From NCBI GenBank assembly GCA_019244185.1, contig JAFATB010000023.1:499446-563445 (forward strand): DNA of 64,000 nt, read 5' to 3'. Origin of the DNA: Acidobacteriota bacterium. GTDB lineage: Bacteria; Acidobacteriota; Thermoanaerobaculia; Gp7-AA8. Positions 10,317 to 11,921 of this stretch are shown here, one piece after another (position 1 is the first letter of the stretch; every line of letters starts with the position of its first letter). Under the pieces are notes generated by a model, which was not told the origin of the DNA, ran no database searches, and saw nothing but the letters and a program-made list of their open reading frames with translations. The position numbers and the translations under genes were made by a program.

Positions 10317-11921
10317 ATGGCTTTCATCGCTGTGCCGTTGTTCCTCTCCACGATCTCGGCGTTCGCGGTGGTACCCGAGGTTGTCTTTCCCGTTCTCGCC
10401 GGCACGATTGACGGTCGGACGTACCGCACGACCGTCGATGTCCGTGGCGCCTCGGCCGCCGACTGCACGTTCGAGCTCGTACGACCCGGTGGCGCGATTC
10501 TCCGTTCGGTCGTACACATCGAGCCCGATGAGCCGAAAGTGTTCGACGAATTTGCCACCGACTTTCAACCGCTCGCGACGACGGTCCGCGTGTCCTGCAC
10601 CGGTGCGGTCGATGTTCACAGTCGCATCCACGAGTCGACGGACGGCGGCATTACGTTCGACGACGGTGCGCTGTATCGAGCCTCTGCTGCCGAACCTTTC
10701 GTTGCAGGTCAAACCATCGCAACGCCGATCACGGGTGACTTCATCGTTGCCGAAGTCGGCGGCGCACCCGTTCGCGTCGCGGCGACGTTGACGGCTACGG
10801 TATCGGGGCGCGTTTTGGAGCGAGTGTATGAGTTGGGTCCCCGCGCTCAGCACTCCGTCGCGATCGTGGCTGCGCTCCGAACCCTTGGCTCGATCGATGG
10901 GCGATTTGCAATCGAAGGCGAAGGACGAGTGATCGTCTTCCGCGCCATAACGGATATCGCCGTGGCGAACATCGCTCAACGTGGCCGCAGCAGGCAGGGA
11001 ATCGCGTCAGATCCTCAGCCGCCGTCGATGACGAGGCAACTATTGATCTCGTCCTTCAAAGCGGCTCCATTCCAGGAACCGGCGACGGGCCTTGTGTTTA
11101 TGCGCGGTCGCTGGTACGACCTTTCGACCGGGACGTTTCTCACGCCCGATCCCCAGGGTTTCGCCGATTCATCCAATCTTTACGCCTTCGGCAAAGGCGA
11201 TCCTGTGGACACGAGTGATCCCACCGGCCGCCTGGTGCGATTCACCGGCAAGGATCCATGGGGCGATTTTTTCCTCTTCCGCGGCAGCCTGCACAATCCC
11301 GCTGCAGCGGCACTCCTTACGCTTCAGGGAGACTCGAAACACGGGTACGTTCTGGGGCTGCGACCGGGCGTTACGAAAGCTCAGTTTCTTGCAACAGCGA
11401 TCCCGGATCCACCTACCTATCGATCTGATCTCGCGGCGCAGGGCATCCCGCTTCCGAAGGACCGCCGAACCGTCGAAGAGAAAGTCTTCGACCTGATCAG
11501 CAGTATGCACATCACCGAGTTTGAAACGGGGGACAGTCTTACCCGTCTGTCTTCGTGGCCGTTCTCCTGGTTCGCACGGACACGCACATTTCAGGAAGCC
11601 ACGAGTCGATACGGCGGCGCAATGACGCTCGAGCCATCCGAGACTCCGTCCGGCAACACCGCCATTGCCGTCAATCCTCTGGAAATCAACAATGGGAGCG
11701 CGTGGGCAGCGACCGCCGCGTATCACCTGGCCTATGACCCCGAAATCGCAGTCATCCACGAGTTCGGCCATGCGCTTGCCTATCACGACAACAACGTGCC
11801 GTGTTTTCAGATGTGGTCCGTTTACTTCGAGAATCAGGTTCGCGCGCGGCGCGGTGAACGGCTCTTTCGCACATCGGAACGTCCTCTCCGGAACGATCCA
11901 AAGACGCTAATCTGTCCCTGA
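10317..11921 (+). CDS. RHS repeat-associated core protein lacking YD repeats, with signal peptide and C-terminal HExxH metallopeptidase-like toxin domain
   Basis: Core motif TGLVFMRGRWYDLSTGTFLTPDPQG...NLYAFGKGDPVDTSDPTG; tip contains HEFGH...ENQVRARRG; N-terminal hydrophobic leader ending SAFA. Confidence 0.8.
   Translation: MAFIAVPLFLSTISAFAVVPEVVFPVLAGTIDGRTYRTTVDVRGASAADCTFELVRPGGAILRSVVHIEPDEPKVFDEFATDFQPLATTVRVSCTGAVDVHSRIHESTDGGITFDDGALYRASAAEPFVAGQTIATPITGDFIVAEVGGAPVRVAATLTATVSGRVLERVYELGPRAQHSVAIVAALRTLGSIDGRFAIEGEGRVIVFRAITDIAVANIAQRGRSRQGIASDPQPPSMTRQLLISSFKAAPFQEPATGLVFMRGRWYDLSTGTFLTPDPQGFADSSNLYAFGKGDPVDTSDPTGRLVRFTGKDPWGDFFLFRGSLHNPAAAALLTLQGDSKHGYVLGLRPGVTKAQFLATAIPDPPTYRSDLAAQGIPLPKDRRTVEEKVFDLISSMHITEFETGDSLTRLSSWPFSWFARTRTFQEATSRYGGAMTLEPSETPSGNTAIAVNPLEINNGSAWAATAAYHLAYDPEIAVIHEFGHALAYHDNNVPCFQMWSVYFENQVRARRGERLFRTSERPLRNDPKTLICP

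Follow-up and report, generated by a model that had tools for sequence, protein, structure and literature searches.

A leader-bearing, shell-less Rhs-core protein family with exchangeable C-terminal tips in the Thermoanaerobaculia (Acidobacteriota)

Can the core of an Rhs toxin be put to use without the cage around it? In the Rhs toxin studies found in the open full-text literature, the cocoon of YD repeats is the container in which the toxic tip is held and cut. The question is raised by P0001, a gene in a stretch of 64,000 nucleotides (hereafter the window; contig JAFATB010000023.1 of assembly GCA_019244185.1, positions 499,446 to 563,445, from an Acidobacteriota bacterium of the class Thermoanaerobaculia), whose product passes from an N-terminal leader and a beta-rich domain directly into an Rhs-associated core and a C-terminal tip. 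A first-pass annotation, made from the DNA letters alone, took it for a minimal polymorphic toxin in which an exported or surface domain replaces the shell and the core is kept for self-cleaving release. P0001 belongs to a family that exists beyond this genome and in which the cage is absent. Searches of the open full-text literature returned no description of a cage-less Rhs-core toxin family (subscription journals lie outside this coverage). The family is a real and apparently undescribed shell-less variant of the Rhs polymorphic toxins. We consider it probable, with some reservation, that P0001 is exported and acts on other bacteria as a polymorphic toxin, as a member of a family restricted to one lineage and composed of leader, two beta-sandwiches (a module of lectin or envelope-binding type), linker, cage-less core, exchangeable toxin and immunity gene.

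Concerning the core, the NCBIfam profile TIGR03696 (Rhs_assc_core) matches P0001 at residues 254-304 with E 2.6e-12 and 47 bits (cut-off 32.5), covering profile positions 25-75 of 76 only (HMMER). A Pfam scan of P0001 yields neither RHS_repeat nor any other significant match. This blank is not an artefact of the lineage, since a canonical Rhs protein of 2100 amino acids (aa) from the same genome, scanned as a control, matches RHS_repeat, SpvB and FG-GAP. Domains that would couple the protein to PAAR/VgrG, to TcB/TcA or to a cell-wall anchor are found in P0001 neither by Pfam nor by NCBIfam. The motifs quoted in the first-pass annotation (GLVFMRGRWYD, GTFLTPDP, NLYAF, GDPVDTSDPTG, HEFGH and ENQVRARRG) are all present, and the layout that it proposed is borne out, namely a hydrophobic leader, an all-beta domain of about 200 aa with two cysteines (C50 and C94) ahead of the core, no YD repeats, the Rhs core and a tip of 229 aa with HExxH. 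The parts of the gene and the gene adjoining it are arranged as follows, with residues counted from the ATG at 10317:

10251..10316, plus strand: possible N-terminal extension of 22 codons from an in-frame TTG, which would supply a charged n-region (R, K, R)
10317..10367, plus strand: Sec-type hydrophobic leader, residues 1-17 (ending ...SAFA, followed by VVPE), recognized from sequence and homologues
10368..10688, plus strand: N-domain beta-sandwich 1, residues 18-124, with the Cys pair C50/C94; predicted local distance difference test (pLDDT) of the model >90
10689..10982, plus strand: N-domain beta-sandwich 2, about residues 125-222, jelly-roll-like; model pLDDT >90
10983..11054, plus strand: flexible linker, about residues 223-246, then the family-specific pre-core MTRQLLISS; low pLDDT, variable length
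11055..11231, plus strand: Rhs-associated core, residues 247-305 (TIGR03696)
11109-11111, plus strand: codon of R265 in the core
11148-11150, plus strand: codon of D278 in the core
11217-11219, plus strand: codon of D301 in the core, within the motif P296-xxxx-D301-P-T-G304, then R305
11232..11918, plus strand: C-terminal tip 'A', residues 306-534, candidate zincin metallopeptidase toxin
11757..11858, plus strand: putative metal site H481-E-F-G-H485, 19 residues, E505-N-Q-V-R-A-R-R-G-E514
11921..12574, plus strand: P0002, 217 aa, candidate immunity gene, its start overlapping the toxin stop (ATGA)

The open frame extends on the plus strand from 10251 to 11921 and yields a protein of 556 aa with the TTG as its start; P0001, of 534 aa, begins at the ATG (10317). 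There is no other in-frame ATG, GTG or TTG between 10251 and 10317, and either of the two may be the start in use.

Such a composition might be suspected to be accidental, be it by fusion or by misassembly, or to be no more than a displaced orphan rhs C-terminal fragment of the ordinary kind, as core-plus-tip orphans are common beside rhs genes in this class and in other phyla. Those orphans exhibit remnants of YD repeats and have no leader, whereas the architecture of P0001 recurs throughout a family. A word-seeded search found 51 homologues of 314-638 aa, named in the source as Thermoanaerobaculia proteins or as Acidobacteria proteins from metagenome-assembled genomes, and phmmer, queried with nothing but the N-domain (residues 18-235), gave 62 matches at E <=0.001 among 1.84 billion cluster representatives. 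All 62 are at most 638 aa long, none is a long Rhs protein, and in those with an intact N-terminus the N-domain begins at about residue 20. Pfam RHS_repeat is found in 0 of 82 and in 0 of 47 members scanned. At the level of genomes, the N-domain occurs in 2 of 401 sampled across the phylum and in 12 of 401 of the class Thermoanaerobaculia, all of the latter belonging to one family; within that family it is carried by 11 of 96 genomes (the window's genome not counted), in the window's genus by 7 of 24, and one genome holds four copies. In the 22 other sampled families of the class it was not found with a single-protein query. This patchy, lineage-restricted spread fits an accessory weapon. In each of three per-run assemblies, which may be source samples and hence not independent, positions 9800-12800 lie in a single contig with 0 differences, and there is no sign of a misjoin at the locus. 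The occurrence in 62 clusters and in 12 class genomes, together with these single contigs, refutes fusion by chance, misassembly and orphan fragment alike as explanations, whose chance of being right is practically negligible. P0001 is not a one-off chimera, and the worry that its N-terminal region might lack homologues fused to an Rhs core is dispelled by the 51 homologues and 62 clusters.

Concerning the tips, 80 complete ones fall into 20 clusters over their whole length, into 42 when the last 120 aa are compared and into 21 for the first 90 aa. The 21 members of the largest first-90 cluster carry 14 different C-terminal ends, so that two tiers can be told apart within the variable part. 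The first tier, a common module of some 90 aa opening with RAAS(V/L)SRSG(W/V)I, is situated directly after the predicted cut site and is a candidate pre-toxin or entry module. Pfam domains are found in the tips of 26 of the 82 members scanned, four of these below the Pfam cut-off; the others are TNT (5), DUF6765 (4), PT-TG (4), RNAse_A_bac (3), Tle1-like (2) and, once each, GH-E, DUF2380, Hpr_kinase_C and Tox-URI2. With 20 tip clusters and at least eight kinds of Pfam toxin, the homologues do not all carry the same tip; one tip common to all was what the first-pass annotation had named as fatal to its proposal. The remaining 56 of the 82 members lack a Pfam tip domain, so many of the toxin and immunity families may be new.

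Eight loci were compared as DNA, seven of them with downstream sequence. Among these seven, three pairs of loci have a tip in common, and it is precisely in these pairs that the downstream gene is common as well: the window and L018 (tip identity 72%, downstream gene 33%, E 4e-5, the N-domains being only 31% identical), L017 and L019 (tip 63%, downstream gene 39%), and L020 and L022 (81% for both). L017 and L018 possess a neighbouring gene of 93% identity, yet their tip and immunity alleles differ, and the gene downstream in L021 encodes an SMI1_KNR4 (SUKH-1) immunity protein (E 2.3e-6). The comparison of the loci demonstrates that tips and predicted immunity genes are swapped as cassettes. 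A search for homologues with different tips and different downstream genes, which had been suggested at the outset, thus turned out positive, all three testable pairs co-varying. The family has the exchangeable tips and the co-varying, directly downstream gene of polymorphic toxins in the sense of Zhang et al. (2012), protection by that gene being predicted only.

When the family profile is aligned to Rhs proteins of solved structure, among them TcdB2-TccC3, RhsA, YenC2 and Tse5, the match extends in all cases through the core only; at the D278 column, the TcdB2-TccC3 sequences 6h6f and 6sue have Ala in place of the Asp of 6h6e and 6suf. For RhsA, the part of Günther et al. (2022, PMC8765631) drawn on here gives the consensus PxxxxDPxG(W/L/F) with a chain ending after W1350, reports that either of D1324N and D1346N abolishes C-terminal cleavage, and describes the conserved C-terminal region as a plug that closes the cocoon from inside. 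In P0001 the motif reads P296-VDTS-D301-PTG-R305, and D278 is situated 23 residues before D301. TccC3 and YenC2 presumably have the same spacing of their two Asp, and a role is likewise assumed for the Arg. With a hidden Markov model built from the family cores, the core is found in 88 of 101 collected proteins; of the other 13, 12 are fragments of <=238 aa, and P0020 (363 aa) diverges from the family alignment from the core onward. R265 is kept in 88 of the 88 cores, D278 in 87 (one gap) and D301 in 86 (two gaps). Across the eight loci, the 58-codon core exhibits a protein identity of 66-90% versus a third-position identity of 34-74%, and between 14 of 52 and 29 of 48 identical residues use different codons. 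As the synonymous sites have diverged while the core protein is conserved, the core is shown, on this codon evidence, to be under selection as a protein and not merely as a DNA recombination site. The core is proposed to act as a self-cleaving release module.

Alternatively, the core might stay uncut in this family and constitute a structural joint or a conserved junction for the exchange of tips, the toxin acting as an uncut protein. Teneurin offers a precedent, its conserved C-terminal region being an uncleaved plug, situated inside the cage in all solved cases (PMC8765631, in the part cited above), and both the moderate model confidence for the isolated core and the Arg that follows DPTG in place of W/L/F would suit an uncut joint. 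A mere linker would not need the Asp dyad, which together with the Arg is retained in 86-88 of 88 cores, and a mere DNA handle would not leave the conservation at the protein level over diverged synonymous sites. We regard an uncut core as rather unlikely, and cleavage by the core remains preferred.

The leader was judged by hydrophobicity and by homologues. In P0001 it reads MAFIAVPLFLSTISAFA and has an uncharged n-region when translated from the ATG. In 58 of 69 core-matching members, a 10-residue window with a mean hydropathy of >=2.0 starts within the first 30 residues; the other 11 are, as far as inspected, mostly N-terminally cut fragments or proteins with later or odd starts. The usual pattern in the homologues is M-x-R, a hydrophobic stretch and A-x-A. 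Behind the leader, an AlphaFold2 model based on a 47-sequence alignment places residues 20-222 in two separate beta-sandwiches (pLDDT >90), followed by a linker with pLDDT <50 at residues 225-236 and 239-249, the length of which varies in the family alignment, and by a core with pLDDT of about 70 that is not packed on the N-domain. The possibility that the N-domain consists of degenerate YD repeats, raised by the first-pass annotation as a way in which its proposal could fail, is ruled out by the two-sandwich model and by the RHS_repeat counts of zero given above.

The best structural match of sandwich 1 is 1nc7 (Thermotoga TM1070; Z 10.6, root-mean-square deviation 3.9, 103 residues aligned), followed by 2ii7, the Anabaena sensory rhodopsin transducer (ASRT; Z 7.7). 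Sandwich 2 has many tied generic matches of Z 6-7, to GOLD domains, PirA and carbohydrate-binding modules. Foldseek with the model of N-domain and core against the PDB gave low-scoring matches only (template-modelling score TMq <=0.23; bicupins and SID1). ESM Atlas models that match residues 18-212 at template-modelling scores of 0.64-0.69 sit in clusters carrying DUF5719 or ASRT, and in the same clusters peptidoglycan amidases, SpoIID, cytochromes or M10 peptidases are found alongside. As a lead only, these matches point towards an envelope-binding module. By sequence, ASRT or DUF5719 (PF07100 or PF18986) is matched in 0 of 47 members in the Pfam scan at E 1 or better; TM1070/ASRT and DUF5719-type modules are alike to the N-domain in fold and unmatched in sequence, and a shared fold is not a shared function. 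All 41 rows without a gap at C94 have the Cys, and a family Cys near position 50 is present but offset in the alignment. Two members, at L020:6007-7146 and L022:5881-7308, possess a leader and the second sandwich only, then core and tip; the N-module is thus itself modular.

A reading without export is that P0001 is a cytoplasmic cargo effector of a type VI secretion system (T6SS), with the N-domain as an adaptor or spike-binding part and a hydrophobic N-terminus that is not a signal peptide. Tle1-like and other tips of the family are typical of T6SS cargo, and the genome contains one TssC gene, on another contig. To this reading we give scarcely any credit, for leader-like N-termini are found family-wide, the family retains C94 and, though offset in the alignment, its counterpart near position 50, the N-domain has a fold of the extracytoplasmic binding type, and a PAAR, VgrG or adaptor gene is absent from the flanks of the examined loci.

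Concerning the origin of the core, its closest relatives are found in long Rhs proteins from this class (L023-L027, L030, L033 and L034; 1,900 to >2,500 aa), which are 52-65% identical to the family over residues 239-308, including the pre-core SPF.A.PF..P.TGL. These long proteins differ from the P0001 family in having a full repeat region and an insert unlike the N-domain. The insert, of about 190 aa by reading of the translations, separates DP(F/Y)G from the core in L024 and L027, two of these long proteins, and in L028; in canonical Rhs proteins no more than a few residues are found at this place. Tblastn extensions in L024 and L027 suggested that the N-domain is homologous to this insert, which is rejected by BLASTP (E 0.14 and 0.62). 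Since the core is common to the local long Rhs proteins, the insert is unrelated to the N-domain and the orphan fragments are different, the short family looks like a secreted two-sandwich protein that was fused to the last 60 or so residues of a local Rhs protein. The likely donors of the core are the long Rhs proteins of the class, and the join is proposed to lie some 10-15 residues ahead of the SPF motif.

Other shell-less forms exist. P0102 (452 aa) possesses a different leader-bearing N-domain of about 110 aa, a more canonical core (DPYGL) and tip 'A' (47% identity) and is free of RHS_repeat, so that a second shell-less scaffold exists. A third scaffold is observed at L028:4411-6978 (855 aa), where a leader, an unassigned domain of about 280 aa, the last Rhs turn, the insert and a DUF6765 tip follow each other, again free of RHS_repeat.

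The window's genome contains a second copy of the family on contig 7 (L015:9216-10656, plus strand), with leader, N-domain, core and a HEIGH-type tip, directly downstream of a 2100-aa SpvB/FG-GAP/RHS gene (L015:2873-9175). This copy is spread over at least four reading frames, reflecting either decay or a sequencing or assembly error. Between it and the next gene, at L015:11010-11780, open reading frames of reiterated short peptides occur on both strands (SGFHAS-like and RVKAR-like), which points to a tandem DNA repeat. In total the genome has 12 TIGR03696 matches and at least eight giant Rhs open frames; one Rhs core (G000:C6:205427-205579, minus strand) lies within an open frame of 7325 aa. 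The position of the broken copy and the number of giant Rhs frames would suit a split Rhs, in which core and tip dock into a separate Rhs or BC-type cocoon so that the cage is supplied in trans. Such an arrangement is very improbable, as Rhs genes are absent from the flanks of the window copy and of the seven other loci examined, the genome's long Rhs proteins come with cores and tips of their own, and the short form has its own predicted export leader.

A search for tip 'A' of the window gene found it in only nine proteins, P0001 included. Many positions of the tip are invariant in an alignment of 8 sequences; at the putative metal site, all 8 have H, E, H, E, N, Q, R, R, R, G and E (tip positions 177, 178, 181 and 201-210). 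The model of the tip has a pLDDT of 68 overall and <50 at the HExxH site; its fold matches in VIA-align are mostly zincins, all weak (Z <=3.6), Foldseek gave no match at E 0.001 or better, and Pfam Tox-MPTase does not match P0001. Motif and fold matches make the tip a candidate metallopeptidase toxin of zincin type. Among proteins of 404-2000 aa, tip 'A' was found on no long Rhs, which is weak evidence. P0002 exhibits several hydrophobic segments, the membrane spans having been judged by eye. Its homologues are the downstream gene of L018 (33% identity, E 4e-5) and P0103 (52%), the sole match of the word search, and by its place and its co-variation with the tip it is a candidate immunity protein of P0001. 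A predicted complex of tip 'A' with P0002 scored 0.01 versus a mark of 0.32, which is no evidence either way.

Taken as an exported toxin, P0001 would work as follows. Its leader and the conserved Cys pair suggest Sec export to the periplasm, from which it would pass onward to the surface or the medium. The N-domain, to judge from its fold, might bind a glycan or receptor of the cell envelope, either the producer's or the target's. The core would cut after DPTG-R305 and free the tip, as the conservation of R265, D278 and D301 suggests, and the freed zincin-type tip (HEFGH...E505) would most likely act in the envelope, where P0002 seems to be an integral membrane partner. The genome contains two secretin genes and the one TssC gene on another contig, none of them near the P0001 locus, and besides toxin and immunity gene no gene is common to the flanks of the eight loci. 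Of the earlier interpretation, the anatomy and the evolution hold, while cleavage by the core is still something that we infer.

Several points weigh against this reading. Concerning the core, cleavage outside a cocoon has no experimental precedent for Rhs proteins; the C-terminal region of the solved Rhs proteins plugs the cage from inside, such that the fold context may matter (PMC8765631, in the same part); the isolated core was modelled by AlphaFold at a pLDDT of only about 70; behind DPTG, 51 of the 68 rows without a gap have Arg, versus the published W/L/F; and P0001 has L269 where at least 90% of the family possess the Pro of WYDP. Concerning export, the leader of P0001 is without a positive n-region if the ATG is the start, outer-membrane export machinery linked to the locus was not found in the flanks of the eight loci, and tips with targets in the cytoplasm (nucleases, NADases) would need a way into the target cell. 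The zincin assignment is based on the motif and on those weak fold matches (Z <=3.6, site pLDDT <50), and the immunity role of P0002 on its position and one co-varying pair only.

A wider claim we hold tentatively, with doubt slightly outweighing belief: the core of about 60 residues may be an autonomous, portable self-cleaving module that needs no YD cage, and the base on which one acidobacterial lineage has formed a new class of Sec-exported, bacteriocin-like toxins with three exchangeable tiers. The first tier would serve for targeting and be lectin-like, made up of two sandwiches, of one, or of other N-domains such as those of P0102 and L028; the second would be the core, which switches release; and the third would be the entry module plus toxin with its immunity gene.

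P0001 and P0002 are both situated in an island of low G+C content, from about 10150 to 12700 (0.58-0.65 versus 0.66-0.77 in the flanks). Flanking repeats, promoters and terminators were searched for around this island, and none above chance was found. By reading of the translations, a PBP1A-type gene lies upstream and a GGDEF-type gene downstream. Further along the window, a Ser/Thr kinase with a C-terminal receiver-like domain is read from the translation at 13819-16158 (minus strand), and adjoining it, at 15201-17912 (minus strand), a PAS/histidine-kinase hybrid that has two receiver domains and terminates in an Hpt-like part.

The organization of the P0001 family is similar to that of the canonical Rhs/TcC toxins (Pseudomonas protegens RhsA, TccC3, YenC2 and Tse5) in the core motif PxxxxDPxG with its Arg/Asp/Asp positions, in hypervariable tips directly after the motif and in the immunity gene downstream. 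Despite this similarity there are differences: the YD cocoon is missing, the part ahead of the core measures about 245 aa versus 1,300-2,000 aa, a Sec leader and two sandwiches are found instead of a PAAR, VgrG or TcB part, the DPxG is mostly followed by Arg, and the tip (230-320 aa) cannot be encapsulated.

The two-tiered variable part resembles CdiA-CT, which consists of an entry domain and a toxin domain, and RNAse_A_bac and CdiA tRNase-type ends are common to CdiA and the P0001 family. In contrast to CdiA-CT and colicin-type toxins, the family has no TpsA, FHA filament, VENN motif or colicin translocation domain. MafB of Neisseria uses DUF1020 and has no Rhs core, whereas the junction module of the P0001 family is the predicted Rhs autoprotease core; the outer-membrane route is unclear in both. 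MafB and other Sec-dependent polymorphic toxins have in common with the P0001 family the signal peptide, the family-specific N-domain, the polymorphic tips and the downstream immunity gene. The part of Zhang et al. (2012, PMC3482391, with its table 1) drawn on here includes polymorphic toxins that depend on Sec and combine RHS repeats with an N-terminal binding domain, and use of the core without repeats is not among what it describes.

Given that the family keeps the cutting module and the swapping of tips without the container, it opens a direct way to examine if the Rhs autoprotease suffices by itself and what purpose the cage has. If the core is indeed autonomous, the cage would not be needed for Rhs autoproteolysis or for handling of the toxin, and a small autonomous self-cleaving tag would have practical use. 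For the Thermoanaerobaculia, a little-studied class of the Acidobacteriota, the family would constitute the first described toxin platform particular to them.

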